A DNA stretch of 64,000 nt from Escherichia coli (GTDB taxonomy: Bacteria > Pseudomonadota > Gammaproteobacteria > Enterobacterales > Enterobacteriaceae), in assembly GCF_024223415.1 (NCBI RefSeq), contig NZ_CP100503.1; one strand, 5' to 3'. Under the pieces are notes generated by a model. It made no database searches. It saw nothing but the letters and a program-made list of their open reading frames with translations, and was not told the DNA's origin. The position numbers and the translations under genes were made by a program. Of this stretch, positions 13,701-54,951 are shown piece after piece. Position 1 is the stretch's first letter; each line of letters starts with the position of its first letter.

Positions 13701-13877
13701 CGCCAACTGTGATTTTACCGAAATAAATTCATAGCCCTGATTCCGCAGGTCCTGAATCAGTTCCCGTTCCAGGTCCGATTCGCTCTGGTAGCTGTCGCCT
13801 GTTTGCTCAGCTTTGATGTACTTATCAAGGACGATAAAGTTATTGGATTCAGCAATGGTGTGTATCTGATGAGTCAT
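10761..13877 (-). CDS. hsdR: Type I restriction enzyme R subunit, type IC (EcoR124 family), 1038 aa
   Basis: Near-identical in length and sequence to EcoR124I HsdR as I remember it ([23 protein letters not shown]...). Shows TTGSGKT Walker A and a DECH box ([10 protein letters not shown]). Confidence 0.95.
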
Positions 13878-13998
13878 AGCGCATCCTTTGTCCCGCCTGG
13901 CAAGGGCCGGAAGGGCGTTAAGAGTGACTTCCGGCGCGTAAAAAATAGTCTATATACAGACCGGGTGTTAAGGTGGCCCGGTCGGTAGCAATGGTCAA

Positions 13999-15233
<1,235 letters not shown>

Positions 15234-15237
<4 letters not shown>

Positions 15238-16796
15238 TTCTGCACCTCGCAGCCTTCAATTTCAGCCACAATCGCATCAATATCTTTACGCAATTGGTCG
15301 ATTTTGCTGACCGTGGTTTTCAGCTCTGCATTCAACTCAGCGATATCGATAATTTCGCGAGTATCTTTCGCTTCCACATAGCTGCTCACCGACAGGTTAT
15401 AGTCATTAGCTACAACGGTCTCAAACGCGACAGATTTTGCCAGATGAGCAACATCTTCCTTGCTGGTGAATACCTGCATAATTTGTTCGATATGGGCATC
15501 GGTCAGGATATTGTTGTTGGTCTCTTTTTTGAACAGTTCGCTGGCATCAATAAACTGAACGTTGGTATCCGTTTTATGTTTGGACAGAACCAGAATGTTT
15601 ACGGCAATGGTGGTGCCAAAGAACAGGTTCGGTGCCAGTGAAATCACGGTTTCGACATAGTTATTGTCAACCAGATACTGACGGATTTTCTGCTCCGCGC
15701 CGCCACGGTAAAAAATGCCCGGGAAGCAGACAATCGCAGCACGACCTTTGGCAGAAAGATAGTTCAGCGCATGTAATACAAACGCAAAGTCAGCTTTGGA
15801 TTTGGGGGCCAGAACGCCAGCCGGGGCAAAACGCTCATCGTTAATCAGCGTCGGGTCATCGCTGCCAATCCATTTCACCGAATACGGCGGGTTAGAAACG
15901 ATGGCATCAAACGGTTTTTCATCTCTGAAGTGCGGTTCAGTCAGCGTATTGCCCAGCTTGATATCAAACTTGTCGTAGTTGATGTTGTGCAAAAACATGT
16001 TCATACGTGCCAGGTTATAGGTCGTATGGTTGATTTCCTGTCCGAAAAAGCCTTCTTCAATGATATGGTTATCAAACTGCTTTTTAGCCTGCAACAACAG
16101 CGAACCGGAACCTGCTGCCGGGTCGTAGATTTTGTTAACGTGGGTCTGCCCGTGCATAGCCAGTTGTGCAATCAGCTTAGAGACGTGCTGTGGTGTAAAG
16201 AACTCGCCGCCTGACTTACCGGCATTCGCGGCATAGTTAGAAATCAGAAACTCATAGGCATCGCCAAACAGGTCAATCTGATGTTCGTTAAAGTCGCCAA
16301 GCTTTAATCCTTCAACCCCTTTCAGAACCGCAGCCAGGCGGGCATTTTTATCCTTAACGGTGTTACCCAGGCGGTTACTGGTGGTATCGAAATCAGCAAA
16401 CAAACCTTTGATGTCTGCTTCTGAAGGATAACCGTAAGCAGAACTTTCGATAGCAACGAAGATGCTGTTTAAATCTGCATTCAGTCTGTCATTAGTATTT
16501 GCTTTCGCAGCTACGTTGCAGAAAAGCTGACTTGGGTAGATGAAGTAGCCTTTGGTTTTGATGGCATCGTCTTTAATGTCATCAGTAATTACGCTGTCAT
16601 CCAGTTTCGCATAACAGATACTGTCATCACCGGCTTCAATATAGCTGGAAAAATTTTCGCTGATAAAACGGTAGAAAAGTGCGCCCAGAACGTATTGCTT
16701 AAAATCCCATCCATCGACCGAACCCCTGACATCGTTAGCAATTTGCCAGATTTGACGATGAAGCTCTGCGCGTTGTTGAATACTTGTCATTTTCAT
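15234..16796 (-). CDS. hsdM: Type IC N6-adenine methyltransferase subunit HsdM, 520 aa
   Basis: HsdM N-terminal domain is present ([14 protein letters not shown]). AdoMet motif [10 protein letters not shown] and catalytic NPPY (VSNPPYS) are seen. Confidence 0.95.
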
Positions 16797-16938
16797 CCAC
16801 TTATTTCAGGCTTATGTAATTGGCGGTGATTCTACAGCAACTTGGATGCTTTAGCAGTTCGGACATTAGGCTACGAATGATCTGCCTAGAGGTTTGTTAA
16901 GCCGCAAAGTGCTGGTGCTTTATGCCTGTGAAGTTTAT

Positions 16939-16968
16939 AATTGTGTACACATAACGAGTACATGAGGT
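16939..16968 (+). promoter_or_regulatory. Probable phd-doc promoter/operator region
   Basis: Palindrome tgtgtacaca (16942-16951) and the related gagtacat lie just upstream of the phd ATG. phd-doc is known to be autoregulated at palindromic sites. Exact site limits are not verified. Confidence 0.35.
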
Positions 16969-16972
16969 ATTT

Positions 16973-17194
16973 ATGCAATCCATTAACTTCCGTACCGCGC
17001 GCGGCAACCTTTCTGAAGTGCTCAACAATGTTGAGGCCGGGGAAGAGGTTGAAATCACCCGCAGAGGCCGTGAGCCAGCAGTAATTGTCAGCAAGGCTAC
17101 TTTCGAAGCCTACAAAAAAGCGGCGCTGGATGCTGAATTTGCATCCCTGTTTGACACCCTGGACTCCACCAACAAGGAACTGGTTAACCGATAA
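16973..17194 (+). CDS. phd: Phd antitoxin (prevent host death), 73 aa
   Basis: [73 protein letters not shown] matches P1 Phd from memory. ATGA overlap with doc. Confidence 0.95.
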
Positions 17195-17574
17195 TGAGGC
17201 ATATATCACCGGAAGAACTTATTGCGCTTCATGATGCGAATATAAACCGCTACGGCGGCCTGCCGGGAATGTCAGATCCGGGTAGGGCAGAGGCCATTAT
17301 CGGGAGAGTTCAGGCCAGAGTTGCCTACGAAGAGATCACCGACCTTTTCGAAGTCTCCGCCACCTACCTGGTGGCTACAGCGAGAGGGCATATATTCAAT
17401 GATGCCAATAAGCGTACCGCGCTAAACAGCGCGCTGCTATTTCTACGCCGTAACGGGGTGCAGGTATTTGATTCACCTGAACTGGCAGACCTTACTGTAG
17501 GCGCTGCGACTGGCGAGATATCTGTATCTTCTGTCGCCGACACGTTACGTAGATTGTATGGTTCTGCGGAGTAG
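17194..17574 (+). CDS. doc: Doc toxin (Fic-fold kinase), 126 aa
   Basis: Matches P1 Doc from memory, including the Fic-like motif [11 protein letters not shown]. Confidence 0.95.
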
Positions 17575-26327: not shown

Positions 26328-26333
26328 CTTAAA

Positions 26334-27386: not shown

Positions 27387-27405
27387 CTCAGGAGGGGGAT
27401 TCCCA

Positions 27406-28638
27406 TTAGTGGGTGACGGCTGATTGCTCAGCGTCTGGTTCCTGCTTCAACGGGCGGTCTGACTGCACCGTCCCTCCACAGGCAAGTACGGCGTGCCCCG
27501 CCGCTAAAATGTTGCGAGCGCCGTTTACATCGGCGTTCGCTGTATATCCACAAGCCCGACACACGAATTTACTTTGTGTCAGGCGGTTTTCTTTCGCTGT
27601 ATGACCACAGCACGCGCAACGCTGGCTTGTGTACGCTGGCGGAACAGCAAGCACCTGACCACCACGCCAGAGCTGCTTGTACTCAAGCTGGCGGCGCATT
27701 TCATACCAGCCCTGATCCAGTATCGAACGGTTTAAACCTGATTTTGCCCGGACATTGCGCCCCGGCTGGCTGACCGTACCCGCTGCTGACTTTGACATGT
27801 TGCTGACCTTCAAATCCTCAATGACTATCATTGCGTGGTTTTTGCTGACGGTCGTTGTGACTTTGTGAAGGTAGTCCCTGCGGATATTTGCAATACGGGA
27901 ATGCAGTTGCTGTATTTTGCGTTTCTGCTTCTGCCAGTTGTTGCTGAATTTGACCCTGCGGCTTAACTGTCGCTGAAGTCTCGCCAGCTTCTTCTGGTTT
28001 TTCTGAAAACTGTTTACAGGTTCAAAGACTGTGCCATCTGACAGCGTGGCGAGTTTAGCCACGCCAGCATCCAGACCGACTATCGTTGTGCTTGTGTGAT
28101 TTGGTTCTGCCGTTTCAATTTCAACCTGAAACGAGATATACCACTGTCCCGCTAACTGACTGATTGTCGCATTTTTGATTTTACCGTTCACACGTTGAGA
28201 TTGCCGGAATTTTACCCACCCAAGACCTGACGGTAGCTTCACTCTGCGATTTTCAAGGCAGCAATATTTCTCAAAGTTCACAAAACGGATTGAGTCTCTG
28301 CCCTCATTTTTTCGTTTCCATACCGGAGCCTTAGCTGCGAGCTTTTTATCAAAACAACGTTTCCATGCGGTATGCAGGTCTTTCAGCTTTTGTTGCAGAT
28401 TGTCGGTATAAGCATCCTGTAAGAAGATATATTCCGGCATTTTTTTCCACACTGTAATCATCCGGTTCAACTCGAAAGCCGAAGGTAACTTTTCGCCTGA
28501 GCCAAGTACGCGCTTTGTCTCCGCAAGACCTAAATTCCAGACAAAACGGGCGCAACCACATAACTGCCGCAAACGCTGCGACTGTTCATGCGTTGGTTCC
28601 AGTCTGAATTTGTAGGCTTTCAGGATTAGCATCATCAT
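27406..28638 (-). CDS. tnpB: TnpB (RuvC-like RNA-guided nuclease family), 410 aa
   Basis: IVGLDAGV (RuvC-I), the zinc-finger CACCGH...CRACGY and ADVNGARNI (RuvC-III) are present. The C-terminal ~220 aa are nearly identical to the TnpB of copies 1/2, but the N-terminal ~190 aa are only distantly similar. Confidence 0.9.
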
Positions 28639-28690
28639 TCAGTGTGTAGTAGATTTTCTTGCAATATTACTGTTTTTACGGCCAACCTCA

Positions 28691-29095
28691 ATGCAAAAAT
28701 ACAAAATCAATCGTTCAAGACATGCTGCCTTCCTTTTGCATGTTCATCTTGTCTTTGTAACAAAATACCGTCGAAAGATACTGGGAGAGTTACACTGTGC
28801 AGCATTCCATCAGTATGCAGCAGAAGTCTGCCGTGACTTTGGGGCAGAACTTAAAGAAAGTAACGGAGATGTCGATCATGTCCACATGCTGATCGAATAC
28901 CCACCAACAGTGCAGCTTTCGGTACTGGTTAACTCACTGAAAGCAGTGACATCCCGCCGTCTGCGAAACGAATTTCTTGATTTGCGGGGGGCATACGGAA
29001 AAGCCGTGCTCTGGTCGAGGTCATACTTTGCTGGCTCCTGCGGAGGTGCGCCGCTGGAAGTTGTGAAGCAATATATTCAACATCAGCGAGGCTGA
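28691..29095 (+). CDS. tnpA: TnpA, Y1 (HUH) transposase of the IS200/IS605 family, 134 aa
   Basis: HUH motif (HVHLVF), DHVHML, and the C-terminal SYFAGSCGGAPLEVVKQYI containing the catalytic Tyr region. Confidence 0.9.
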   Translation: MQKYKINRSRHAAFLLHVHLVFVTKYRRKILGELHCAAFHQYAAEVCRDFGAELKESNGDVDHVHMLIEYPPTVQLSVLVNSLKAVTSRRLRNEFLDLRGAYGKAVLWSRSYFAGSCGGAPLEVVKQYIQHQRG

Positions 29096-29172
29096 GCACC
29101 CTTCGGGCTTTTCAAGCCCGTCCAAATTCCCCTGCCGCCTTATGTCGGCGGGAGTACCCTTTGGAAGTTAAG

Positions 29173-29785: not shown

Positions 29786-30850
29786 TCATTCAGCCGCCAC
29801 AGGTTTTAACAAGCCAGCATCGAGCAGTTTACGCGTCAACCACTGCTGGCCTTTCCCCGTTAATTGGGGCGTCAGCCGTATCTGGTAGCCCTCTTCATCA
29901 TCCAGCACCACTTCTTTCACTGTGAAATATCCGGCGTTTATGTACTGCTGGAACGGTACATTTTTACGTCCACCGGACGCTATCAGGATGCCGTTCTCCC
30001 GTAACCAGGCAAACAGCGCGTTTTGCTTAAGTCCAACAACCTTTGCAAAATTCCCAATCAGGATTCCATTAGCCACTGATACCCGGTCGGCAAAATCGAC
30101 TTTAGGAGCGGCGGCCACCAGCTGCTGATTTAGCTGGTGGGCTTTCTGTTCCAGAAGTTGCTTTTGTTCAGCCAACTCGGCAGCCAGGCGGAGGGCTTCG
30201 GGGAGTGTCTGGGGGATCGCTGGAGAAGCAGCGCTAACCTGCTGCAACTCCTCCAGCTTGTCGATCAACGAACGGCGGACCGCTTTTGACTCGCGCGCGG
30301 CAACTCGCAGGGCTTGTTTGTAGGTCATGGTTATGACCTCAAAAGAGCGCCCAGCCCTTGTGCCATGGGATTTTACGAAAGTTTCGTAAAATTCCCCATC
30401 AAGTTCATCCTTAATTCTATTGAGAAAATCGTTATTGCGGATCTCATTTTCCCCACATAGCTTGCGCGCCTCATTGACCATCTTTAACAGTGTCTGGCTG
30501 TCGATTGTGTCGCCCGTACTGGGGATAACATCCATGGCTGGTAGTGGTGTGGATTCTATCAAAGGCTTTGTAACGACAACATCTGGTTTGCTTGCTTTCA
30601 TTCTGTGTGCCTCCTTGCGTGCTTCGGCGGTTACGGTTGCATAATCAAGACGACCCTGTTCGAGCAGGTATTCACGGATATCAGTTAGCAGAATGCGGTG
30701 AACCGCGTTCTTGTCCTTTCTCCGGTAAAGTTGTTTGGTGATCATGAAGTAGTTGGCTATAACACCAGGAATGTCCCTGGCGCTGATACAGATTGTGTGC
30801 TGTTCAATAGCCTCGATCATTTCTTCACGGGTAACTAATGACGTTCTCAT
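29786..30850 (-). CDS. ant: Antirepressor Ant, copy b (alternative middle domain), 354 aa
   Basis: The N-terminal 85 aa and C-terminal KilAC domain are about the same as copies a/c. The middle (IDSQTLLKMVNEARKLCGENEIRNNDFLNRIKDELDGEFYE...) is shared instead with copy d. Confidence 0.8.
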   Translation of the reverse strand: MRTSLVTREEMIEAIEQHTICISARDIPGVIANYFMITKQLYRRKDKNAVHRILLTDIREYLLEQGRLDYATVTAEARKEAHRMKASKPDVVVTKPLIESTPLPAMDVIPSTGDTIDSQTLLKMVNEARKLCGENEIRNNDFLNRIKDELDGEFYETFVKSHGTRAGRSFEVITMTYKQALRVAARESKAVRRSLIDKLEELQQVSAASPAIPQTLPEALRLAAELAEQKQLLEQKAHQLNQQLVAAAPKVDFADRVSVANGILIGNFAKVVGLKQNALFAWLRENGILIASGGRKNVPFQQYINAGYFTVKEVVLDDEEGYQIRLTPQLTGKGQQWLTRKLLDAGLLKPVAAE

Positions 30851-31068
30851 AGCCCCTCCTGAGCAGAAGCGTTAACAGGGAGGCACCAGTAACTGAGAGA
30901 GTTGCGCGAGTCAGTAGAAAAGCGTGCAGAGAAAATGCAGGGAGCGTCAGGAAGCTGAGAACGGGCCTCATCTTCTGTTGGTGCAATGACGAAGTGATAG
31001 TGACGTTTTTGACAAGAATAGAAGCGCCAGATAAATTCCGGGCGTGCGCAAGGATTGGCATTAACCAT
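30847..31068 (-). CDS. icd: Icd, 73 aa, copy b
   Basis: MVNANPCARPEFIWRFYSCQKRHYHFVIAPTEDEARSQLPDAPCIFSARFSTDSRNSLSYWCLPVNASAQEGL. ATGA overlap with ant(b). Confidence 0.85.
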   Translation of the reverse strand: MVNANPCARPEFIWRFYSCQKRHYHFVIAPTEDEARSQLPDAPCIFSARFSTDSRNSLSYWCLPVNASAQEGL

Positions 31069-31118
31069 AGTTACGGCCTCACAAGTTGAATTAACAACCT
31101 GCTACCCGCTGTCAAACA

Positions 31119-31195
31119 GGTGGCAGGACGTGACAGGGTTGACAGACTGGCACTTGTGAAACCAGCAGGCCGAAGCCTCCCCATCACGCCCCACC
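31119..31195 (-). ncRNA. c4: c4 antisense repressor RNA, specificity variant b (77 nt)
   Basis: Minus strand reads ggtggggcgtgatggggaggcttcggcctgctggtttcacaagtgccagtctgtcaaccctgtcacgtcctgccacc. The loops CUGUCAA and UCACAAGU are complementary to flanking TTGACAG and ACTTGTGA sites. The 77-nt size agrees with published c4. Confidence 0.8.
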
Positions 31196-31385
31196 ATAAT
31201 TCGGGCGTAACGCGGTTTTACGGACACAAAAATACCGCAATAACGGAGTGATGCGGTTGTCCGCACAAGTATTCAGGCTGTCAAACCCGGTCGCAGAATT
31301 TGCTACGACGCAGGAACTATAAGCCTGAACGACGGGAAGATCAATAGTCTGGCGTCCAATAGTAGTTTATTTGTTCCAATAAATC

Positions 31386-32751: not shown

Positions 32752-32768
32752 CATTGCTCTAATAAATT
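32752..32768 (+). promoter_or_regulatory. C1 operator (Op51-like) heading immI module c
   Basis: attgctctaataaattt, 17/17. Confidence 0.85.
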
Positions 32769-32959
32769 TGATTTTTTAGGGCAAATAAACTACCATTGCG
32801 CACTGCCCTATTGATCTCCTTACCGTTCAGGCTTATATTCATGCCGTCGTAGCAAATTCTGCGACCGGGTTTAGCAGCCTGAATACTTACGCGGACAACC
32901 GCAGATATCCGATATTGCGGTATTTTCATGTCCGTATAACCGCGTTACGCCCGAATTAT

Positions 32960-33036
32960 GGTGGGGCGTGATGGGGAGGCTTCGGCCTGCTGGTTTCGTA
33001 AGTGCCAGTCTGCTAACCCCGTCACGTCCTGCCACC
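32960..33036 (+). ncRNA. c4: c4 antisense repressor RNA, specificity variant c (77 nt)
   Basis: ggtggggcgtgatggggaggcttcggcctgctggtttcgtaagtgccagtctgctaaccccgtcacgtcctgccacc. The loops CUGCUAA and UCGUAAGU are complementary to flanking TTAGCAG and ACTTACGA. Confidence 0.8.
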
Positions 33037-33086
33037 TGTTTAGCAGCGGGTCGCAGGTTGTTTTATCAACTTACGAGGCCGTAACT

Positions 33087-33308
33087 ATGGTTAATGCCAA
33101 TCCTTGCGCACGCCCTGAATTTATCTGGCGCTTTTACTCCTGCCAAAAACGTCACTATCACTTCGTTATTGCACCAACAGAAGATGAGGCCCGCTCTCAG
33201 CTTCCTGACGCCCCATGTATTTTCTCTGCCCGCTTTTCCACTGATTCGCGCAACTCTCTCAGTTACTGGTGCCTCCCTGTTAACGCTTCTGCTCAGGAGG
33301 GACTATGA
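33087..33308 (+). CDS. icd: Icd, 73 aa, copy c
   Basis: Protein identical to copy b. The track ORF 32958..33308 is an upstream extension through c4. Confidence 0.85.
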   Translation: MVNANPCARPEFIWRFYSCQKRHYHFVIAPTEDEARSQLPDAPCIFSARFSTDSRNSLSYWCLPVNASAQEGL

Positions 33309-34417
33309 GAACATCGTTAGTTACCCGTGAAGAGATGATCGAGGCAATTGAACAGCACACTGCCTGTATCAGTACCAGGGATATACCGGGCGTTATTGCC
33401 AACTACTTCATGATCACCAAACAACTTTACCGGAGAAAGGACAAAAACGCGGTTCACCGCATTCTGCTAACCGATATCCGTGAATACCTGCTCGAACAGG
33501 GTCATCTGAATTACGCAACCGTCGCAGCCGAAGCACGCAAGGAGGCACACAGAATGAAAGCAACTAACGTTAAATCAGAAAAAATTTATGCACCTTCAGT
33601 TCAGGAATCGGAACTGGTGGTTGTTCAGAATCAGCCGGATGAAATTCCCGTTCTGGAATGGCAGGGAGTACGTGTCGTGACAACCGAAACTCTTGCTAGA
33701 GGGTATGGGACCGAAACTAATAACATCAAAGTTAACTATACGCGTAATGCTGATCGCTTTGAGGAAGGTAAACATTACTTTCTACTAACTGGTTCAAAAT
33801 TAAAAGAATTGAAGGACAAGGTTACTCAAAGTAACTTAGTCGCACCGCGAGCAAAGCACCTCACTCTCTGGACGGAACGCGGCGCAGCCCGCCACGCTAA
33901 AATGCTCGAAACCGATCAGGCATGGGCATTCTTTGAAAAACTGGAAGACAGCTACTTCCGACAAAAAGAACAGCAACCGATCGCAATCCCCCAGACGCTT
34001 CCTGAAGCTCTGCGCCTGGCTGCCGAACTGGCTGAACAAAAGCAACTTCTGGAACAGAAAGCCCACCAGCTAAATCAGCAGCTGGTGGCCGCAGCCCCTA
34101 AAGTCGAGTTTGCCGACCGGGTATCAGTGGCCAAGGGGATCCTGATTGGGAATTTTGCAAAGGTTGTTGGACTTAAGCAAAACGCGCTGTTTGCCTGGTT
34201 ACGGGAGAACGGCATCCTGATAGCGTCCGGTGGACGTAAAAATGTGCCGTTCCAGCAATACATCAACGCCGGGTATTTCACGGTGAAAGAAGTGGTGCTG
34301 GATGATGAAGATGGCTACCAGATACGGTTGACGCCCCAGCTAACTGGGAAAGGCCAGCAGTGGTTGACGCGTAAACTGCTCGATGCTGGCTTGTTAAAAC
34401 CGGTGGCGGCTGAATAA
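33305..34417 (+). CDS. ant: Antirepressor Ant, copy c (ORF6N/Bro-like middle), 370 aa
   Basis: Collinear with copy a. The middle domain reads VLEWQGVRVVTTETLARGYGTETNNIKVNYTRNADRFEEGKHYFLL. Confidence 0.8.
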   Translation: MRTSLVTREEMIEAIEQHTACISTRDIPGVIANYFMITKQLYRRKDKNAVHRILLTDIREYLLEQGHLNYATVAAEARKEAHRMKATNVKSEKIYAPSVQESELVVVQNQPDEIPVLEWQGVRVVTTETLARGYGTETNNIKVNYTRNADRFEEGKHYFLLTGSKLKELKDKVTQSNLVAPRAKHLTLWTERGAARHAKMLETDQAWAFFEKLEDSYFRQKEQQPIAIPQTLPEALRLAAELAEQKQLLEQKAHQLNQQLVAAAPKVEFADRVSVAKGILIGNFAKVVGLKQNALFAWLRENGILIASGGRKNVPFQQYINAGYFTVKEVVLDDEDGYQIRLTPQLTGKGQQWLTRKLLDAGLLKPVAAE

Positions 34418-35178: not shown

Positions 35179-38100
35179 TTATGCGTATTGTTGGATGACG
35201 GCCAGAACGTCCGCCACGTTGTGTTTTGTCTCGATAATCCACCAGTTACCCGGGAAATCGCTGTTCTTCGCCTTCGCTGGCAGCCAGCGAGCGCCGAATT
35301 TCGCCTTGATTGCGTCTTTCGCACGGAAAAGAACCCCTTTCATGCCTGAGGCTTCCTGAAGCCCAAATACCTCGCCAGCGGCGAATTTTGGTGCGTACAT
35401 CATCTTCAGGTCGGCGGTGGATACGCGATAATTCAGGCCAAGAGACTGAGCTATGCTGGTGGCATCACCCTGTATTGATGATAACTCTTCTTGTTTCTCG
35501 TTTCTGGCGGCAATCTCTTCCTCCGTGATGTTGCCAAGGGCCAGGTTTATCCGATCAGCGTCGGCCTGTTTCTCTTCATCGGTGCGCCCGGCAAGAACCG
35601 TGTTAATTCTCTGCAATATCTCCACATGATTCTTGCGCATGCTGAGCAATTCCGGCGTAACCTCGTTAAGATCCACCAGCCCAAGGATGGCAAGGTCGGA
35701 AAACATTGATACCAGGTTGTAGGTCATGCGATAGCTGAGTTGACCATAGGCTGATGGCAACTTCACCGCATCCATTTGATAGGCATCCATAAATTTAGAG
35801 CCGTCGTTTACGACATCCGCTATTGCAGGTGTGATTTTCCCTGTGGTGGCGGCCTCCCTGATTGCTGTTACCCACGATTGAGTCAGCGCGGCGACTGCAT
35901 GATTCAGATTGGCTTTCCGTTCTGCTGCGATGCGCGCGCTTGCTGCGTCCATTGCCTGCTTGATCTCGGCTTTATTGCTGTAAATGCCAATGGTGCCAAA
36001 CTGTGCTGTGGTGATCTCATAATCTGACGCCCGGAACTCATTGGTACCGAAAATGGCATTGGTGACTTCAAGTTCAGAATCCCCGTTACGAGTAGCCCCC
36101 TGGCTTGTTTTTTCCGGCATTCTGGCGATCGCATCCGCTATTTTCTCCTGAATTGCTTCAGGGGATAGCGTATCTCCGTATGACGCGATTACATCGCCAT
36201 AATTGGAGCCAAACAATTCAACCAGGAATGTTTCTGCCGAACGGATCTGGCGGTTATTCCCTTCCGACATCATACCAAGCACCCATTTTGCAATTGACGA
36301 CTTCAGCGCGCCGTCACGGCGATCCGGGTAAACCGCATGCTTCAGTGGGTCCGTATAGGTACCAACAAAATCAATGCTATAGCCTGACTCTGTAGTCTGA
36401 ACGCCGTATGAGTCAGTGATTTTGATCATGCCGCGCTGCTGGAAACGGTAGAAATCGTCACAGGAAATGATGTCGTTAATCCCGGCGATGGAGACGCCAC
36501 CACTGATTTTCTGCATAACAGCATCTTCATCGGGAGTTACATCCACCTGTTTATCCAGCGTCTTCACATCCCAGTTACCCGATTTGGTGCCTTTGAAGGT
36601 AAAGATGATCTCCACGTCTGCGCGCTGGCTGTCGAAGTCCAGCGACTTAATGCGAACGATATCACCGGCACAATCGTAGTATTGGCCTACACGCCATGAG
36701 CGATCGCCGATAACAAGGAACTCACTCGCATGGTTAACCAGGTCAGGATCAACATCCAGAATGCCTTTATTTATTGCATCCTCCACCAGCGGGCGCAGGC
36801 GTTTGATATCCGTCGCGGCCTTCTGAGTACGGTTCAATAATTTCTCATAGCGGGAGATGGCTTGAGAGATATTAGCCTTGCGCTGAATGGCGTTTTTCAA
36901 CGACGCGCGATACTGTGCTAACAACATACGGTCTGTGTGATGGACGCTCCCCCAGCGGGCCTTCCAGTCTGCGTTATCAGCTGCTTTGGCCATTACCGCC
37001 TGTTTGAATTTAGCTACCTCGGCGGTGGTCTTTTCAAGTTCCGCTTTGCTTCGCTCTAATTCAGCGGTAAGTACCTCCACATCCTCGCCAGCTGCGTGCT
37101 GCGCCTTGATGTAGTTCTGAAGGTCGATAGTAGCCTGTTCTTTCTGGCGAGCGCGTTGCGCGGCTTTCGCCTTATCCATTTGAACCTGCATCATTGCCAG
37201 ACGTTCGCCATCATCCTTAGCGGTATACATCTGCATTTCGATCATATCGTTGGCGTCGGCGTTCTCCATTTCAGACTTATCTGAGCGGAGGATATCGGAG
37301 ATCCAGCCTGCTTTACGCTTCAGCGTCTTCAGTCGGTATTCATCGAAAGAACCCTTGCCGCAGTAGTAGTGAACGCGAACGCTTGCACGGTTGGAACCAA
37401 CTCGGGCACCGCGACCGTTACGCTGTGCGATACTGGCTGGTGTCCATGGCAACGTCAGATGATGGATGTCAGTCGTTCCTCGATGCAGGTTGATACCCAC
37501 CTCTGCCTTTTTGTTGCAGATGATGATCGGAGTCCGGCCCTCCTGGAAGTCGGCAGCAATCTTTTCCAGCCCACCCAGCGACATTTCATTTTGCTGCGCG
37601 ATATAGGCGTCATACAGAGCCATTTGCTCGTTGTATTTCGCTATCTGTGCATCTGTTGGTTCATCCGGTAGCTCTTTCGGCGGTTTAACCGCTTTCAGTT
37701 TCTTACCGGTTTTACCTGCCTCGGCAACCGTCTGAGCATTCAGGATCCCCACCTTTGAAGGTTCAAGGTTAAGAGCATTGCAGATAATGCGCTTGAGCTT
37801 CTGGTGTTGCGTTTTTTCATCGGTGAAGATGATTTGCTTACCTTCCGGGAAAAACTCCTTCAGCGTGGCGATCAGCTTCGCGTATTTCGGCGTAACGGGG
37901 TGAGTTACGGTCTGTTCGTCAATGCCAAACCTGGCCAGGCGCTTATTCACTTCCTGCTCGAACGCTTCCGGAACCTGCAACTGAATAAACTCGCCCTTAT
38001 CTATCAGGGAGTATTGCGATTGCTGCGTGATCGAATCATCACTGTCGTCGTCTTCGCTGGTGGCTTGTTTAGGCAAACTGTCCGCCAGCTGCTGCACCGC

Positions 38101-40068
38101 ATCGGCGTACTCCGGCAGGAAACGATAGGTGATCCTGCGATAGTACAGGTCCATGTCAGTACATACGCGGTCCATATCCCTGATTATTGAGAAGATCGGA
38201 CGGGCTTTCTCGTGCTCAATCACGCCGTCTTCATTGACCGAGGTCGTTACGCCATTGTTGGCTTTGGCTGCCGCTTCCGCCTGCTGACGCAATTCTTCAT
38301 ACGCCGCCAGTTGTTCTTCCGTAAGTGGTGCATCCTGCTGGTGTTCGTCCAGTTCCGGGATCTCCACGGTATCCTTAACGTCTTCCGCCGTTTTAAGCGT
38401 TGTCCAGCGATGGAATATGCCGCGCAGCGCATCAAGGTTTTCAAAGCCCACCAGCGCCATTTTTTCTTCAACTTCACCGCTAATTTTCTGTACCGTTTCC
38501 AGCCTGGTCTTGCCGAAGAATTTAACGAAGTCATCAGGACCGTAGATCCCCATCTTCTGCCAGTATTCCTTCGGCAGCACATGAGAAAGCATGTTGTATG
38601 CATCGATCGGGGTGTTAACGACTGGCGTTGCAGTCAGGAGAACCGGTCCGCGCCCACCATTCTTTTTCATCAGGTACGCGTTTTTAATTGCCATATCCCG
38701 CGCCGATTGCGCCACCGCGCTGGTGGGCAGATAGGCCAGTTGTGACGCTTCGCGACCATTTTTATAGCTATTGCGGTAGTTGTGACCTTCGTCAGCGATC
38801 ACACTATCGAAGCCCATATCCTCAAAGTACGGATACTTCTCTGCTTTTTCGGTGCCGGTATCTGAATACTCCGACAATACCCGGCGACGCGCGGCCTCTT
38901 TGCGGTGGGAGTCGGAGTCCATTGCGCTGGCTACGCGCCCGGCGGCAACGAAGTCATAAAGCATATCCTGTGCATGCTCATCTACGGTGTCATCACGTAG
39001 CGGAATGCGGGCGTATTGTTCTTTGGTAAACACGACTGCACGGTAATTTGAGTGCGGGATCGCGTTCATCCGCGCCGTGATAGTGGCTTCATCTGCCAGC
39101 TTAAGAGCATCGCGCATAACTGGAGTGCCATCAGTACCAAGAACAGGTTTACCGTTCTCATTGAGCACCGGCACCTGGCGAATCTGATCGCCATCCATCA
39201 GCACATCAAGACCGACGAACAGGTAGTTACTGAATGCCTCTTCACTCAGGAACTCTTTTGCTTCGTAATACCAGTTTTCCAGCACTGATTTAGGCACTAC
39301 ATACGCAGTACGGGTGGAACGACCGTTCTCATAGTTGAACGCCTCAAGCGCCAGCGCGGTCGTGGTTTTACCCAGCCCGGTACCGAAGCCCAGGATGCCG
39401 CGCCCATCTTCGGACAGTCGGCGCACCTCGCTATTCTGGTAATCAAATGGCTGTCGCTTACCGCTTAATCCCTTCAACCCAAGCGGATCGCCAGAGTGTT
39501 CATACGGGATATTGCTATTGAACACATCGTTGTATTTGGCAACCAGCTCATCGTAGCGATCGTGCGTCTTGATCCACTTATTGAACTGGTCCTCAAGCAG
39601 TGCCATCTGCTCGCGGTAGCCGTTCGCCGTCGCGCTATCTTTGCCACCGATACGCGCACCATTGAGATACTTTTCCAGCTGTGCCGGGAACCCGGTCGCG
39701 TTTTCACCTGATTTACGGTCCCACTCGTAGCGGATCTCGCCTGTTTCTTTATCCTTGCGCTGGACGACACCGTATCGGTGCCCGACGAACAGACCATCAC
39801 CACCGTGATAGGTGTCAGAAACCATTTCGTCGCCTTCCAGCTGCACTGACTGCACATAGCGAAGATCCGGATAGCCGTTTTCCTGCAAAAATTCCAGAAT
39901 GACGGAACGGTCGAACCAACGGCTATTGAGCTTAAAGCGGATATTCTCTGCTGGCGTCTTGATGCGCTTCTCTTCGATCGCTGCCAGCTGATTAAGGACG
40001 TTGTTCTTTACCCAGTGCGCCGTAAAGCCCCGTCCTTCAGGTCGGGGATATAAGGCGCGGTTTTCCAC
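35179..40068 (-). CDS. darB: DarB-like giant SF2 helicase, N-terminally truncated by IS copy 1 (native sequence ends at 40011; first 19 codons come from the IS left end)
   Basis: Helicase motifs GFGTGLGKTTTAL, VIADEGHNYRN, LLTATPVVNTP and QRNGRGARVG are present. The reading frame enters the IS at TTAC (40008-40011). No methyltransferase domain is present upstream. Confidence 0.7.
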   Translation of the reverse strand: MENRALYPRPEGRGFTAHWVKNNVLNQLAAIEEKRIKTPAENIRFKLNSRWFDRSVILEFLQENGYPDLRYVQSVQLEGDEMVSDTYHGGDGLFVGHRYGVVQRKDKETGEIRYEWDRKSGENATGFPAQLEKYLNGARIGGKDSATANGYREQMALLEDQFNKWIKTHDRYDELVAKYNDVFNSNIPYEHSGDPLGLKGLSGKRQPFDYQNSEVRRLSEDGRGILGFGTGLGKTTTALALEAFNYENGRSTRTAYVVPKSVLENWYYEAKEFLSEEAFSNYLFVGLDVLMDGDQIRQVPVLNENGKPVLGTDGTPVMRDALKLADEATITARMNAIPHSNYRAVVFTKEQYARIPLRDDTVDEHAQDMLYDFVAAGRVASAMDSDSHRKEAARRRVLSEYSDTGTEKAEKYPYFEDMGFDSVIADEGHNYRNSYKNGREASQLAYLPTSAVAQSARDMAIKNAYLMKKNGGRGPVLLTATPVVNTPIDAYNMLSHVLPKEYWQKMGIYGPDDFVKFFGKTRLETVQKISGEVEEKMALVGFENLDALRGIFHRWTTLKTAEDVKDTVEIPELDEHQQDAPLTEEQLAAYEELRQQAEAAAKANNGVTTSVNEDGVIEHEKARPIFSIIRDMDRVCTDMDLYYRRITYRFLPEYADAVQQLADSLPKQATSEDDDSDDSITQQSQYSLIDKGEFIQLQVPEAFEQEVNKRLARFGIDEQTVTHPVTPKYAKLIATLKEFFPEGKQIIFTDEKTQHQKLKRIICNALNLEPSKVGILNAQTVAEAGKTGKKLKAVKPPKELPDEPTDAQIAKYNEQMALYDAYIAQQNEMSLGGLEKIAADFQEGRTPIIICNKKAEVGINLHRGTTDIHHLTLPWTPASIAQRNGRGARVGSNRASVRVHYYCGKGSFDEYRLKTLKRKAGWISDILRSDKSEMENADANDMIEMQMYTAKDDGERLAMMQVQMDKAKAAQRARQKEQATIDLQNYIKAQHAAGEDVEVLTAELERSKAELEKTTAEVAKFKQAVMAKAADNADWKARWGSVHHTDRMLLAQYRASLKNAIQRKANISQAISRYEKLLNRTQKAATDIKRLRPLVEDAINKGILDVDPDLVNHASEFLVIGDRSWRVGQYYDCAGDIVRIKSLDFDSQRADVEIIFTFKGTKSGNWDVKTLDKQVDVTPDEDAVMQKISGGVSIAGINDIISCDDFYRFQQRGMIKITDSYGVQTTESGYSIDFVGTYTDPLKHAVYPDRRDGALKSSIAKWVLGMMSEGNNRQIRSAETFLVELFGSNYGDVIASYGDTLSPEAIQEKIADAIARMPEKTSQGATRNGDSELEVTNAIFGTNEFRASDYEITTAQFGTIGIYSNKAEIKQAMDAASARIAAERKANLNHAVAALTQSWVTAIREAATTGKITPAIADVVNDGSKFMDAYQMDAVKLPSAYGQLSYRMTYNLVSMFSDLAILGLVDLNEVTPELLSMRKNHVEILQRINTVLAGRTDEEKQADADRINLALGNITEEEIAARNEKQEELSSIQGDATSIAQSLGLNYRVSTADLKMMYAPKFAAGEVFGLQEASGMKGVLFRAKDAIKAKFGARWLPAKAKNSDFPGNWWIIETKHNVADVLAVIQQYA

Positions 40069-40485
40069 CTAACCAGGTGTTTGCTGTTGTTCAATGTATT
40101 GGCGGATGATGGATATTGGTGCGCCACCGCAGCTACTGGCAAAATAGCTGGGACTCCATAAAACGCCTTTGTAGTAATATCGGGCTGCAATATCTGGTCG
40201 ATCTCGTCGCAATAATCTACTCGATACGCCCTTGAGACTGTTCACCAGGCTGGATATCGCCAATTTGGGGGGATAGTTAATTAGCAGGTGAACGTGATCT
40301 CGTTCTCCATCCATTTCAACCAGTTCAGCTTCAAAATCAGCACATACACTTGAAAAGTAAGTGCGTAGTTTTTCTATTGCGTCATGGTCAAAAATCTGAC
40401 GTCGGTATTTTGCGACAAAGACCAGGTGAACGTGCATCAGGAAGACGCAGTGTCTTCCACGTCGGATATCAGTTTCTTTTTTTAT
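40069..40485 (-). CDS. tnpA: TnpA Y1 transposase, copy 1; canonical ATG replaced by ATA
   Basis: Same protein as copy 2 (KKETDIRRGRHCVFLMHVHLVFVAKYRR...SYFASSCGGAPISIIRQYIEQQQTPG), but nt 40483 is T where copy 2 has C. The copy-2 start codon is therefore ATA here. The track's 178-aa ORF uses an upstream ATG. Confidence 0.7.
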   Translation of the reverse strand: MKKETDIRRGRHCVFLMHVHLVFVAKYRRQIFDHDAIEKLRTYFSSVCADFEAELVEMDGERDHVHLLINYPPKLAISSLVNSLKGVSSRLLRRDRPDIAARYYYKGVLWSPSYFASSCGGAPISIIRQYIEQQQTPG

Positions 40486-40507
40486 GGACCAAAGTATAAT
40501 TTGGCTT

Positions 40508-41716
40508 ATGAAACGACTACAAGCTTTCAAATTCCAGTTAAGACCAAATGGACAGCAGGAGCGTGAAATGAGGCGCTTCGCGGGCGCATGTCGTTTCGTT
40601 TTCAATCGTGCTCTGGCGCTTCAGAATGAGAATCATGAGGCCGGGAACAAATATATTTCTTATGCAAAGATGACTTCCTGGCTGGTTGAATGGAAAAATG
40701 CTACTGAAACGCAATGGCTTAAAGATTCTCCCTCACAGCCATTGCAGCAGTCACTGAAAGACCTTGAGCGAGCCTACAAAAATTTCTTTCAGAAGCGTGC
40801 CTCTTTTCCCCGCTTCAAAAAGCGGGGACAGAATGATGCATTCCGCTATCCGCAGGGCGTTAAGCTCGACCAAGGGAACGGTCGTATTTTTCTGCCAAAA
40901 CTTGGCTGGATGCACTACCGGAACAGCCGTCAGGTCTCGGGGATTGTGAAAAACGTCACTGTCAGCCAGTCCTGCGGTAAGTGGTACATCAGTATTCAGA
41001 CAGAAAGTGAAGTATCAACTCCGGTTCACCCTTCAGCATCAATAGTCGGTCTGGATGCAGGCGTGGCTAAACTCGCCACGCTGTCAGATGGCACAGTCTT
41101 TGAGCCTGTAAACAGTTTTCAGAAAAACCAGAAGACGCTGGCGAGACTTCAGCGACAGTTAAGCCGCAAGGTCAAATTCAGCAACAACTGGCAGAAGCAG
41201 AAATGCAAAATACAGCGACTGCATTCCCGTATCGCAAATATCCGCAGGGACTACCTTCACAAAGTCACAACGACCGTCAGCAAAAACCACGCCATGATAG
41301 TCATTGAGGATTTGAAGGTCAGTAACATGTCAAAGTCAGCAGCGGGTACGGTCAGCCAGCCGGGGCGCAATGTCCGGGCAAAATCAGGTTTAAACCGTTC
41401 GATACTGGATCAGGGCTGGTATGAAATGCGCCGTCAGCTTGAGTACAAGCAGCTCTGGCGAGGCGGTCAGGTGCTTGCGGTTCCGCCAGCGTACACAAGC
41501 CAGCGTTGCGCGTGCTGTGGTCATACAGCGAAAGAAAACCGCCTGTCACAAAGTCAATTCAGATGCCAGGTATGTGGATATACAGCGAACGCCGATGTAA
41601 ACGGCGCTCGTAACATTTTAGCGGCGGGGCACGCCGTTCTTGCCTGTGGAGGGATGGTGCAGTCAGGCCGCCCGTTGAAGCAGGAACCCACCGAAATGAT
41701 TCAGGCGACAGCCTGA
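40508..41716 (+). CDS. tnpB: TnpB, copy 1
   Basis: [17 protein letters not shown]... with IVGLDAGV, the CACCGH..CQVCGY zinc finger and ADVNGARNI. The track start 40484 is probably 8 codons too early. Confidence 0.9.
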
Positions 41717-41797
41717 ACGTAGCAGGAATCCACGTCCTTCAGGGCGTGGAGGATGTCAATGGAGCCTCCCCTTCTCTGCCGACGTTCAGGGGGGTTT

Positions 41798-42835
41798 ATG
41801 AAAACACCTCTCGTCACCCGTAATGACATAGCCGAAGCGATCGCCCTGCATACTGCCTGTATGCCGACACGGGAGATCCCCGGCGCAATTGCCAACTATT
41901 TCATGATAACCAGACGTTTTTATACCCGAACAGATAAGGCTGTGATCAACAAGCTACTGATAGCCGAGATCAGGGATTATTTGATTGAACAAGGACGTCT
42001 ACGTTACGCAACAGTGGCAGCAGAAATGAGAAAGGAGGCACATAGAATGACCGGTAATAATTTAAATGTTGAAAAACCAGCACCTGTTGCTTCAGCTACG
42101 CCAGCACCAGCCGTGAATATCATCCCCAACACCGGAGACACAATCGACAGCCTGACACTGTTAAAGATGGTCAATGAAGCGCGTAAGTTATGTGGGGAAC
42201 CAGAGGTTCGGAACAACAAATTCATCGAAAAAATACTCGATGAGCTTGATGGTGAGCACTACACAAAAAGTGTAGTGGAAAAAATGAACAAAACATCAAT
42301 GCTTGTCATAACCATGACTTTCAAACAAGCCCTGCGAGTCGCCGCGCGCGAGTCAAAAGCGGTCCGCCGTTCGCTGATCGACAAACTGGAAGAATTACAG
42401 CAGGCAAACTCACCTACCCCATCGATCCCCCAGACATTACCAGAAGCCCTACGCCTGGCTGCCGAGTTGGCAGAACAGAAAATGCAGCTGGAACAACAGC
42501 TGGTGGCCGCAGCCCCTAAAGTCGATTTTGCCGACCGGGTATCAGTGGCCAATGGAATCCTGATCGGGAACTTTGCAAAGGTCGTTGGACTTAAGCAAAA
42601 CGCCCTTTTCTCATGGTTGCGCCAGAACGGCATTCTCATGGCTTTTGGTGCGCGCAAAAACGTACCGCGCCAACAGTACATCAACGCCGGGTATTTCACG
42701 GTGAAAGAAGTGGTGCTGGATGATGAAAATGGCTACCAGATACGGCTGACGCCCCAATTAACGGGTAAAGGCCAGCAGTGGTTAACTCGCAAGCTACTTG
42801 ATGCTGGTTTGTTAAAACCAGTAGCAATAGGTTAA
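41798..42835 (+). CDS. ant: Antirepressor Ant, copy d (native immI position upstream of kilA), 345 aa
   Basis: MKTPLVTRNDIAEAIALHTACMPTREIPGAIANYFMI... has the same three-part architecture, with the middle domain as in copy b. The upstream 38 nt resemble the 3' end of icd and abut the IS right end. Confidence 0.8.
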   Translation: MKTPLVTRNDIAEAIALHTACMPTREIPGAIANYFMITRRFYTRTDKAVINKLLIAEIRDYLIEQGRLRYATVAAEMRKEAHRMTGNNLNVEKPAPVASATPAPAVNIIPNTGDTIDSLTLLKMVNEARKLCGEPEVRNNKFIEKILDELDGEHYTKSVVEKMNKTSMLVITMTFKQALRVAARESKAVRRSLIDKLEELQQANSPTPSIPQTLPEALRLAAELAEQKMQLEQQLVAAAPKVDFADRVSVANGILIGNFAKVVGLKQNALFSWLRQNGILMAFGARKNVPRQQYINAGYFTVKEVVLDDENGYQIRLTPQLTGKGQQWLTRKLLDAGLLKPVAIG

Positions 42836-42848
42836 CAAAAGAAAAAAA

Positions 42849-42871
42849 CCTGCCAGCAAACTGGCAGGTTT
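42849..42871 (+). terminator. Rho-independent terminator after ant(d)
   Basis: cctgccag-caaa-ctggcagg followed by ttt. Confidence 0.6.
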
Positions 42872-42913
42872 CTGAGCAGATCGTCCAACCCGATCTGGAT
42901 CGAGCCAGAAAAA

Positions 42914-42930
42914 TTTGCTCTAATAAATTT
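42914..42930 (+). promoter_or_regulatory. C1 operator (Op53-like) controlling kilA-repL
   Basis: tttgctctaataaattt, 16/17. C1 control of the kilA-repL operon is established for P1. Confidence 0.8.
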
Positions 42931-42999
42931 CGTTTTCTAAGTGCAAAGAATCACCATTTCGAGCTGGTGATTGAAGGTTGATGCAAATTTGGAGAAAAA

Positions 43000-43800
43000 A
43001 TGCAACAAACATTCAATGCGGATATGAATATATCAAACCTTCATCAAAATGTCGATCCTTCAACCACTCTGCCTGTTATTTGTGGTGTTGAAATTACGAC
43101 CGACCGCGCTGGCCGTTACAACCTTAATGCTCTACACAGAGCGAGCGGACTCGGTGCCCATAAAGCGCCAGCTCAATGGCTAAGAACGCTGTCAGCCAAA
43201 CAGCTCATCGAAGAGCTGGAAAAAGAAACTATGCAGAATTGCATAGTTTCGTTCGAAGGCCGTGGCGGCGGCACTTTTGCCCATGAATTGCTCGCTGTGG
43301 AGTACGCAGGCTGGATTTCTCCCGCGTTTCGGCTGAAGGTAAACCAGACATTTATCGACTATCGAACCGGAAGATTACAACCTGCTATTCCGCAGAGTCT
43401 CCCTGAAGCTCTCCGTTTGGCTGCCGACCTGGCAGAGCAAAAGCAACGGCTGGAGCAAAAAATGCTTATGGATGCACCTAAAGTCGAATTCGCTGAACGC
43501 GTTGCTACCGCCAGCGGGGTTCTAATCGGCAACTATGCCAAAGTGCTCGGCCTGGGCCAAAACTATCTCTTCACCTGGTTGCGTGATAACGGAATTCTGA
43601 TCGCAACCGGTGAACGCAGGAACGTCCCCAAACAAGAATACATATCTCGTGGGTATTTCACCCTTAAAGAAACCGTGATCGATACAAGCAATGGAAGCAG
43701 GATTTCTTTCACGACTCGTATAACCGGCAAAGGTCAGCAGTGGCTGATGAAGCGATTGCTTGATGCTGGTGTGCTGGTACCTGTCGCGGCAACGCGCTAA
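43000..43800 (+). CDS. kilA: KilA (KilA-N domain + KilAC/ANT domain), 266 aa
   Basis: The N-terminal KilA-N region (RYNLNALHRASGLGAHKAPAQWLR...GTFAHELLAVEYAGWISPAFRLKV) and position upstream of repL match P1. Confidence 0.85.
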   Translation: MQQTFNADMNISNLHQNVDPSTTLPVICGVEITTDRAGRYNLNALHRASGLGAHKAPAQWLRTLSAKQLIEELEKETMQNCIVSFEGRGGGTFAHELLAVEYAGWISPAFRLKVNQTFIDYRTGRLQPAIPQSLPEALRLAADLAEQKQRLEQKMLMDAPKVEFAERVATASGVLIGNYAKVLGLGQNYLFTWLRDNGILIATGERRNVPKQEYISRGYFTLKETVIDTSNGSRISFTTRITGKGQQWLMKRLLDAGVLVPVAATR

Positions 43801-43829
43801 CAGACGTAGTAAGAACCACCAGCATTGTA

Positions 43830-44675
43830 ATGCTGGCTAAAGTCACTTTCCTGAGCTGTATAACGATGAGCGATTTTACTTTTTCTGGCTATGAATTGGC
43901 CTGCTTTGTAACACACTCCGGTCTATCCCGTAGCGCCGGGCATATCCTGTCGCAATGTGCAAATCTCGCGGCAACAACCAGTGAATACTTCATTCACAAG
44001 CCTCACCGCCTGATCGCGGCAGAAACTGGTTATAGCCAATCAACCGTCGTTCGTGCATTCCGTGAAGCTGTAAACAAAGGAATTCTGTCTGTAGAGATTG
44101 TTATCGGCGATCACCGTGAACGTCGCGCTAACCTGTACCGGTTTACACCATCCTTTTTGGCCTTCGCACAACAAGCCAAAAATGCGCTGATTGAAAGCAA
44201 ATTAAAGATCTCTTCAGCGGCAACCAAGGTTAAAGCTGTTCTCGCTAAGACATTGGCTTTATTTAATTTTTTATCCACACCCCCATGTCAAAATGATACC
44301 CCCTCCCCCTGTCAGGATGACGTGGCAATAAAGAATAAGAAGTCAGAAATTAAAAAAACAAAAAGATCAGTTTCCGGCGGTGCCGGAACGACCAGCCTCA
44401 AAAAACTGACTTCATGGATCGCCGAGGCAAAAGCAAAGGCTGACAATCTGCGGTTATCCAAAAAACGCGCTCAAAAACATGAGTTCAAGCAGAAAGTAGA
44501 GGCGGCAGCGCGGAAATATGCTTACCTGAAGGACAAGCGTTCTCCTGATATTGGCGGGATATCAAACTTCGATAATCTGCCGCATTGCATGACAGTAAAC
44601 GAAGCTCTTAATGCGGTATTAGCCAAAAATAAAGATAACGAACAATGGGGTATACCGGCAGGATTCAGAGGGTGA
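43830..44675 (+). CDS. repL: RepL lytic replication initiator, 281 aa (oriL expected inside)
   Basis: The length and sequence (…GYSQSTVVRAFREAVNKGILSVEIVIGDHRERRANLYRFTPSFL…) match P1 RepL from memory. Confidence 0.9.
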   Translation: MLAKVTFLSCITMSDFTFSGYELACFVTHSGLSRSAGHILSQCANLAATTSEYFIHKPHRLIAAETGYSQSTVVRAFREAVNKGILSVEIVIGDHRERRANLYRFTPSFLAFAQQAKNALIESKLKISSAATKVKAVLAKTLALFNFLSTPPCQNDTPSPCQDDVAIKNKKSEIKKTKRSVSGGAGTTSLKKLTSWIAEAKAKADNLRLSKKRAQKHEFKQKVEAAARKYAYLKDKRSPDIGGISNFDNLPHCMTVNEALNAVLAKNKDNEQWGIPAGFRG

Positions 44676-44678
44676 TAG

Positions 44679-44695
44679 ATTGCTCTAATCTGGAG
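44679..44695 (+). promoter_or_regulatory. Possible C1 operator half-match
   Basis: attgctctaatctggag has only the 11-nt core conserved. Confidence 0.35.
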
Positions 44696-44971: not shown

Positions 44972-45153
44972 TACAATCGTTACGGGTGCTTGAGGCTATC
45001 TGCTTCAGGCATTACCCGAAAAGCAGATAGAAGAAAGCCCCAGATAACATTACGCGTCCTGCAAGACGCTTAACATTAATCTGAGGCCATCTCTATGCTT
45101 AGCATACGTAGATTAACCCTCTCCCCTTTTAAGGAGCAAGGAATTTTTTACTG

Positions 45154-45750
45154 CTATGCCGCATTTCCAATTATGGATTCAGCGACCAGAACAACCCCAT
45201 GCTTACTTCGATCTGGGTGTTCACTCCATATCTCGGATTCAGGAATACTTACCCCGTCATAGCAAACACGTTCGCCGTCAAACGGGTAATACTGAGCGGC
45301 ATCGGTGTCAAGGATAAACACTTTTAGCTCGGAAGAGCGACGGGCGATGTGTTGCCAAAGAGCTTTTCCACCTTCGTATTGCTCATTATCACTGAGCAAA
45401 ACAACACCAGCTTTTGAGGCTACGGTTTCGTAAACAAAAGTAGCTAAACCGACATCCCGGACGGTTCCATCAACCACGATACCTTCAATCTGGGCAACAT
45501 CGCTATCCTCCCAGAACTTCCTTACCAGTACGCCTTCAAGCTGCGGGCGACGTTGAAGTTCAAGAGTAGCGACAACCTTATGGCGCATATCACCATCGAT
45601 AATAGAAGGCGCAGCCTCTATTACAGCTGCAAATGGGGTTTTGGAATCCCATATAACCTGGTAAAGCACACCCTGGATGGTAACTCCGTCCAGGATCGAA
45701 AATCGACGAGCGACAGTACCCGGGGAGTACGACATTGGAATCACAGCCAT
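45154..45750 (-). CDS. Hypothetical 198-aa protein
   Basis: Track ORF is 45154..45786. ATG 45750 has a good SD (aaggggga). No family recognised. Confidence 0.55.
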   Translation of the reverse strand: MAVIPMSYSPGTVARRFSILDGVTIQGVLYQVIWDSKTPFAAVIEAAPSIIDGDMRHKVVATLELQRRPQLEGVLVRKFWEDSDVAQIEGIVVDGTVRDVGLATFVYETVASKAGVVLLSDNEQYEGGKALWQHIARRSSELKVFILDTDAAQYYPFDGERVCYDGVSIPESEIWSEHPDRSKHGVVLVAESIIGNAA

Positions 45751-53681: not shown

Positions 53682-53821
53682 CGAAAGTCATCCTTTATGC
53701 TGTATTTTTGAATTTACTTAAAAATGCTGCATAAAATAATAATGTATGCACAGATGCTTGTACATAGCATTCTCTGCATGTTTGGTTCATTTTGCACGAT
53801 TGAGAGTTACAAGGAGGACAC

Positions 53822-53842: not shown

Positions 53843-53849
53843 ATCAGTG

Positions 53850-54950: not shown

Positions 54951-54951
54951 A

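Follow-up and report, generated by a model that had tools for sequence, protein, structure and literature searches.

An IS609-group element between remnants of darB and icd

The stretch of Escherichia coli DNA analysed here (assembly GCF_024223415.1, contig NZ_CP100503.1; 64,000 nt, in the following called the window) is part of a P1-like phage-plasmid and lies in the same orientation as the P1 map, as seen in a local BLASTN comparison with the P1 reference genome NC_005856. The subject of this analysis is a joint at which one copy of an insertion sequence (IS), copy 1 at 40012-41759, connects the 3' part of the antirestriction gene darB with the last codons of icd, the IS being the sole DNA between the two P1 breakpoints. 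A preliminary description of this locus had placed the left end of copy 1 against a TTAC inside a minus-strand darB-like reading frame and the right end against the 3' remnant of a plus-strand icd, and both assignments were confirmed, with the TTAC at 40008-40011 and the icd remnant at 41760-41801.

The darB remnant (35179-40011, minus strand) comprises codons 646-2255 plus the stop codon and encodes exclusively the helicase/SNF2 part, with the Pfam domains SNF2-rel_dom, Helicase_C and ResIII. P1 DarB is a methyltransferase-helicase antirestriction protein of 2,255 amino acids, to which the remnant aligns without gaps over residues 646-2255 (BLASTP, 1598/1610 identical, 99%). The missing 645 N-terminal residues hold the N6_Mtase/Eco57I domain of the P1 protein (Pfam) and are encoded nowhere in the window. 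The preliminary estimates of about 1610 remaining native codons with helicase motifs, of a P1 protein of roughly 2250 residues and of a methyltransferase domain in the lost portion were thus all close to what is found: 1,610 codons, a full-length form of 2,255 residues and the N6_Mtase domain within residues 1-645. The remnant has neither promoter nor start codon nor N6-methylase domain, and the tnpA stop codon of copy 1 lies in frame with it and precedes residue 646 by 18 codons. While P1 possesses DarB residues 1-645 and the partners darA, hdf, ddrA and ddrB, the window is devoid of all of these. As it lacks a promoter and start codon of its own and the Dar partners are gone, the remnant is most likely a fresh pseudogene, and its undecayed open frame with 99% identity to P1 fits a recent event.

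On the other side of the IS, the icd remnant (41760-41801, plus strand; P1 48650-48691) consists of the last 13 codons and the stop codon, and is followed by an intact ant1 (41798-42835, plus strand; 345 codons; Pfam ANT) and by kilA and repL in the order of P1. Codons 1-60 of icd are gone, as are the c4 RNA gene and its promoters, and Rfam detects no C4 RNA upstream of this ant1. The exact Ant1 protein is found in 554 database blocks, with an intact icd always upstream in the contigs read. The ant1 gene of the window would therewith have lost c4, the c4 promoters and its coupling to icd, and tnpB of copy 1 is transcribed towards it.

Copy 1 (1,748 bp, left to right end on the plus strand) belongs to the IS200/IS605 family, IS608/IS609 type, and within it to the IS609 group, with approximately 93.7% identity to annotated IS609 and 99.7% identity to copies on two IncI plasmids. 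It carries tnpA for a Y1/HUH transposase (40069-40485, minus strand; 138 codons; full-length Pfam match to Y1_Tnp, E = 3.5e-42) and, divergently, an intact tnpB (40508-41716, plus strand; 402 codons; Pfam HTH_OrfB_IS605, OrfB_IS605 and Cas12f1-like_TNB). Terminal inverted repeats and a target duplication are both absent, the flanks reading TTTAC and TGGAG. The target tetranucleotide TTAC at the left junction (40008-40011; P1 15298-15301) is part of darB; within the left end the guide AAAG (40024-40027) stands directly 5' of the subterminal hairpin CCCCGTCCTTCAGGTCGGGG (40028-40047; DNA fold z = -3.7), and the right end (41726-41759) is composed of GAAT (41726-41729), a hairpin (41730-41749) and 10 nt ending in the cleavage site TCAA (41756-41759), the last bases of the copy, all read on the plus strand.

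In IS608, the TTAC and TCAA cleavage sites are read by guide tetranucleotides located beside hairpins (PMC3201880, PMC5027513), and TCAA is placed 10 nt 3' of the foot of the right hairpin (PMC3201880). Copy 1 shares with IS608 the AAAG guide, the left end 3' of TTAC and the TCAA 10 nt past the hairpin foot, and with both IS608 and IS609 a Y1 HUH TnpA, a divergent tnpB, subterminal hairpins and the lack of inverted repeats and target duplication, while the distance from TTAC to the foot of the left hairpin is 16 nt compared to 19 nt in IS608. Judged by its family membership, copy 1 would move by the single-strand 'peel and paste' route via a single-stranded circle. Unlike a second copy in the window (copy 2, start codon at 62763-62765) and the plasmid copies, in which tnpA starts with ATG, tnpA of copy 1 has ATA at this position (40483-40485), and the copy at the joint is probably unable to make its own transposase.

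Collinear flanks and the missing interval

The joint reads P1 ..15301, copy 1, P1 48650.., with both flanks ascending in P1 coordinates. The block of lxc, ulx and darB matches P1 plus-to-plus, and upstream cre, c8 and mat also follow P1 in order and orientation. A simple insertion has contiguous flanks, whereas the flanks of copy 1 are 33,348 bp apart in P1 (interval P1 15302-48649), in agreement with the preliminary description, which had argued against a simple insertion. The junction is a recombinant, deletion-type IS joint.

No match to P1 15302-48136 is present anywhere in the window (BLASTN), the interval matching only paralogous c4/icd modules. Missing are darB codons 1-645, prt, pro (portal), lydE/D, lyz, ssb, isaA, IS1, isaB and hxr; ddrB, ddrA, darA, hdf and lydB/A/C; cin, the invertible tail-fibre segment, S, R and gene 16; and bplA (baseplate), pmgA, sit, pmgB, tub (tail tube), pmgC, simCBA, c4 and icd codons 1-60. 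That the prt/pro/lyd/cin/tail-fibre/sit/sim segment is not located between darB and immI had been noticed before, and indeed it is not in the window, although the cause then proposed, an inversion, does not stand.

Mismatched target duplications, the usual test for a recombinant joint, cannot be used for this IS family; as no duplication is made, the ancestral sequence at the right breakpoint, with the target tetranucleotide at both breakpoints, was taken as evidence instead. At the left breakpoint, the IS-free sequence after the darB TTAC is TGGACCGTCGG in P1, SJ46 and vB_EcoM-673R5. The right breakpoint in P1 is preceded by ...CACTTAGTTAC and followed by TGGAACCTCC, with TTAC directly before P1 48650. 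In IS-free contigs encoding an identical Ant1, the same position reads ...AGTTAC and then TGGAGCCTCC in 10/10 cases, the bases after the breakpoint being in each of them exactly the right flank in the window. Since both ancestral breakpoints follow TTAC on the plus strand, both are valid insertion sites for the element in the same orientation; TTAC occurs at 0.4% of P1 positions, which sets the chance at 0.004 per position.

The target preference itself can be read from further copies. TTAC precedes the left end at all eight sites occupied by copies with an AAAG guide (the two window copies and L005, L006, L017, L018, L024 and L025), while chromosomal IS609 copies differ from copy 1 in having the guide AAAA and are located 3' of TTAT (L020-L023, 4/4 sites). 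This covariation of guide and target in the IS609 group, AAAG with TTAC and AAAA with TTAT, matches the prediction of the base-pairing rule of IS608.

Origin of the joint

Recombination between directly repeated IS copies is a classical route of IS-mediated genome reduction, and the joint resembles such deletions in the single IS left behind, the collinear flanks and the interval missing from the window. We consider it fairly probable that two IS insertions in the same orientation, one in darB and one in icd, were followed by recombination between these direct copies, which deleted the interval. An IS609-group element would have produced three or more insertions, all with one orientation and all 3' of TTAC, in darB (P1 15301/15302), icd (P1 48649/48650) and dmt (P1 68049/68050), with the left-end guide AAAG picking TTAC and the right end being cut after TCAA. 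Homologous recombination between the direct darB and icd copies would then have looped out the interval together with one IS, so that one IS would be left between darB codons 646-2255 and the last 13 icd codons, and the excised circle, without oriR and oriL, would be lost. The structure of the IS, the collinear flanks, the TTAC at both breakpoints and the lack of the interval in the window are seen directly, whereas we infer the recombination step, a former copy in icd and that the whole replicon has lost the interval; a second copy in icd in the same orientation is most likely, because the icd breakpoint follows TTAC in P1 and in 10/10 relatives. Of the recombination between IS copies in darB and icd assumed in the preliminary description, the two sites are retained, with TTAC at both, while the inverted orientation is not, as collinear flanks call for direct copies.

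A further copy in the same orientation, which supports this history, is present in dmt. Copy 2 (62292-64000, plus strand) stands 3' of TTAC at 62288-62291, its insertion point corresponding to P1 68049/68050; the window stops 39 bp short of its right end, and its right flank lies beyond. Copies 1 and 2 are distinguished by eight differences, two private to copy 1 and six to copy 2, and have three derived bases in common which are absent from the plasmid copies, arguing that the IS multiplied within this replicon lineage. The six differences private to copy 2 cluster within 245 bp of tnpB (IS positions 1068-1312; window 63359-63603), suggestive of gene conversion with a more distant IS609 as donor. 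In the P1 reference, a 140-bp stretch next to incA (61346-61484) matches the terminal 140 bp of copy 1 (3' end of tnpB plus the right end) with 79% identity and could have been left by an old element of the IS609 type.

Several observations weigh against two insertions followed by deletion. The absence of the interval applies to the 64-kb window, which ends inside copy 2. No relative with a simple insertion at the darB or the icd site was found: the junctions of darB with the left end, of the right end with icd and of dmt with the left end were not recovered from INPHARED, PLSDB, the complete E. coli genomes of RefSeq, IMG/VR, the JGI metagenomes or the GTDB representatives, nor was the exact left-end sequence of this IS in the same six collections, although such absence of the parental junctions does not exclude parental insertions. 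At the icd site TTAC is preceded by G, while the observed sites have T (7/8) or A (1/8) at this position. Finally, the pattern of single-nucleotide differences gives no sign of copy 1 being a mosaic, and says nothing on a hybrid origin. Exact-protein look-ups found no record of the chimeric DarB reading frame, of the extended Ant1 or of TnpB in two start versions, and found the TnpA of this lineage only in unrelated contexts.

Contigs of the same lineage, identified by exact-protein look-ups, share the IS-disrupted cre, three extra c4/icd/ant modules and the hsd locus with the window. In nearly all of them, darB codes for a protein of 2,255 amino acids, with prt and pro coming after it, and relatives of this lineage also possess an intact icd with sit..sim before it; 16,340 sequences of 2,255 amino acids are members of the DarB cluster. 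That the helicase gene might naturally be without a methyltransferase in relatives, as considered in the preliminary description, does not apply to these close relatives with their full-length proteins; a distant homologue with 47% identity has 1,648 amino acids. From sequence comparison, the darB region is judged dispensable and variable in the lineage. Other truncated forms, of 1,623 and 1,239 amino acids, have native N-termini. The DarB product of 1,625 amino acids of one relative (L028, CADHPJ010000075.1) was considered as a possible second instance of the junction and rejected, as its length corresponds to a start at native codon 631, a GTG, and hence to a different lesion. An IS-derived DarB leader was not present among the full-length protein search matches, and a search with the chimeric N-terminus gave one fragment only. 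In three relatives (L057, L061 and L063, at about 4419-4732), prt is directly followed by lxc, with darB and ulx both absent.

An alternative, which we regard as unlikely, is that the interval was moved rather than lost, the excised circle having re-integrated via IS homology, for example beyond copy 2 or at a chromosomal IS609. Relocation would be compatible with the window stopping 39 bp short of the right end of copy 2, with the remaining structural genes in the window, which are about 98% P1-like and show no visible decay, and with the presence of IS609-type copies in some 5,000 out of 5,426 genomes of E. coli; in that case the phage would have a rearranged genome and not a defective one. 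Against this, an extra step is needed, and the predicted junction is absent from all collections searched, which cover other genomes only.

Quite unlikely, too, is an assembly artefact or a minority isomer, in which the assembler would have jumped between IS copies in darB and icd with 33 kb between them. In favour of it, the IS is a repeat of 1.75 kb with two or more copies, and the public collections searched contain no other sequence with this junction; against it, copies 1 and 2 have been resolved with eight distinct differences and the repeats are therefore not simply collapsed.

An improbable third course would require a single IS in icd, with TnpA cutting both its left end and, far away on the same strand, the TTAC of darB, and with subsequent exchange of strands; by the same route, the darB TTAC would be joined to the left end and the interval released as a single-stranded circle. 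The product would be identical, with TTAC at both breakpoints, and the left-end guide of IS608 does recognise the target TTAC upon integration (PMC5027513). Such a reaction, on the other hand, requires synapsis across 33 kb of single-stranded DNA, and tnpA of copy 1 is without ATG, though copy 2 could supply TnpA. As copies in the same orientation exist in the replicon, plain homologous recombination is sufficient. We know of no reported adjacent deletion by an IS200/IS605 element via this transposase route.

Recombination between the paralogous c4/icd/ant modules was also considered and is rejected, as the two breakpoints are located precisely at the ends of the IS. The inversion put forward in the preliminary description, by recombination of oppositely oriented IS copies in darB and icd, has nothing in its favour beyond the non-contiguous flanks and can be dismissed with near certainty, as it would set P1 48649 descending beside the IS where the window has 48650 ascending, and as darB is located on the minus strand in P1 too (complement(10469..17236) in NC_005856, with icd and ant1 on the plus strand), the opposite direction given for it in the preliminary description being in error, with cre, c8, mat, lxc and ulx in P1 order and orientation.

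The surrounding phage-plasmid and its possible fate

Beyond the joint, the P1-like backbone runs in the orientation of P1. BLASTN aligns window 1-10685 with P1 73786-84482, 16897-22133 with P1 87970-93206, 23838-25582 with P1 93232-94799 and then 1-175 across lox, 26332-27357 (cre) with P1 434-1459, 29170-29783 (c8) with P1 1454-2069, 31464-32303 (mat) with P1 2629-3469 and 34453-40011 (lxc, ulx and the 3' part of darB) with P1 9743-15301. To the right of copy 1, 41760-44689 (icd end, ant1, kilA and repL) corresponds to P1 48650-51585, 45880-53783 to P1 53412-61315, 56033-59864 to P1 62807-66645 and 60885-62291 (dmt) to P1 66643-68049.

Several segments depart from P1. A type I restriction-modification locus with an HsdR of the EcoR124 type, HsdS and HsdM (10761-16796, minus strand) is in place of P1 84483-87969. 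At 53784-56032, two minus-strand genes take the place of incA/repA of P1, one for a protein with a T5orf172 domain (53850-54659) and one for a divergent initiator of the Rep3 type (54952-55893). Rfam identifies the sok antitoxin RNA of a hok/sok module (44984-45158) downstream of repL, at the location of rlfA/rlfB in P1. Three extra c4/icd/ant-like immunity modules are found at 22228-23804, 29786-31322 (minus strand) and 32755-34417, each with an ANT-domain protein and with C4 antisense RNAs by Rfam at 22329-22416, 31116-31201 (minus strand) and 32954-33039 respectively; two of the three stand in place of P1 ref and res/mod, and the canonical immI has lost its own c4.

A third, different element of the IS200/IS605 family (27358-29169) is inverted relative to copies 1 and 2, with tnpB at 27406-28638 on the minus and tnpA at 28691-29095 on the plus strand. 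It interrupts the last codons of cre, so that the Cre C-terminus reads ...LLEVDILPHLRTS compared to the native ...LLEDGD, and its left flank is not TTAC. Its tnpB shares a patch of 647 bp with 96% identity with that of copy 1 (27437-28083 versus 41042-41688), and the same cre::IS allele is found in 227 database blocks.

For maintenance, the window retains parAB, a Rep3-type RepA, repL, phd/doc and hok/sok. Without the darA operon, portal, lysis genes, cin, tail fibres, baseplate and tail tube, the element would no longer be able to make particles, but the deleted derivative could persist as a plasmid with the retained parAB, Rep3 RepA, repL and phd/doc. The turning of P1-like phage-plasmids into plasmids by gene loss has been documented (Pfeifer and Rocha 2024, PMC10879196). 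As in those P1-derived plasmids, a P1 backbone here keeps replication, partition and addiction modules while essential virion genes are gone; in contrast to them, the breakpoints and the responsible element are base-resolved, the gene loss being seen in the 64-kb window only.

The IS at the joint might have a further effect. The guide of a TnpB nuclease is taken from the sequence immediately 3' of the right end of its element (approximately 16-20 nt), and its target-adjacent motif (TAM) is the target of the IS. The exact TAM plus target for the guide of copy 1, TGGAGCCTCCCCTTCTCTGC, is present in the intact icd of 10/10 IS-free P1-like relatives. It is conceivable, though we hold it to be a long shot, that the intact tnpB with the guide TGGAGCCTCCCCTTCTCTGC could cut incoming wild-type P1-like genomes at icd, next to TTAC. 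If true, a transposon nuclease carried by a defective P1 plasmid would by accident provide RNA-guided superinfection exclusion.

The proposed event is of a known kind and leaves the knowledge of P1 and of IS200/IS605 elements unchanged. It would nevertheless show at base resolution how one step can suffice to make a plain plasmid out of a phage-plasmid and, for IS families that make no target duplication, the joint illustrates that a recombinant junction can still be recognised by checking the ancestral breakpoints for the target tetranucleotide.

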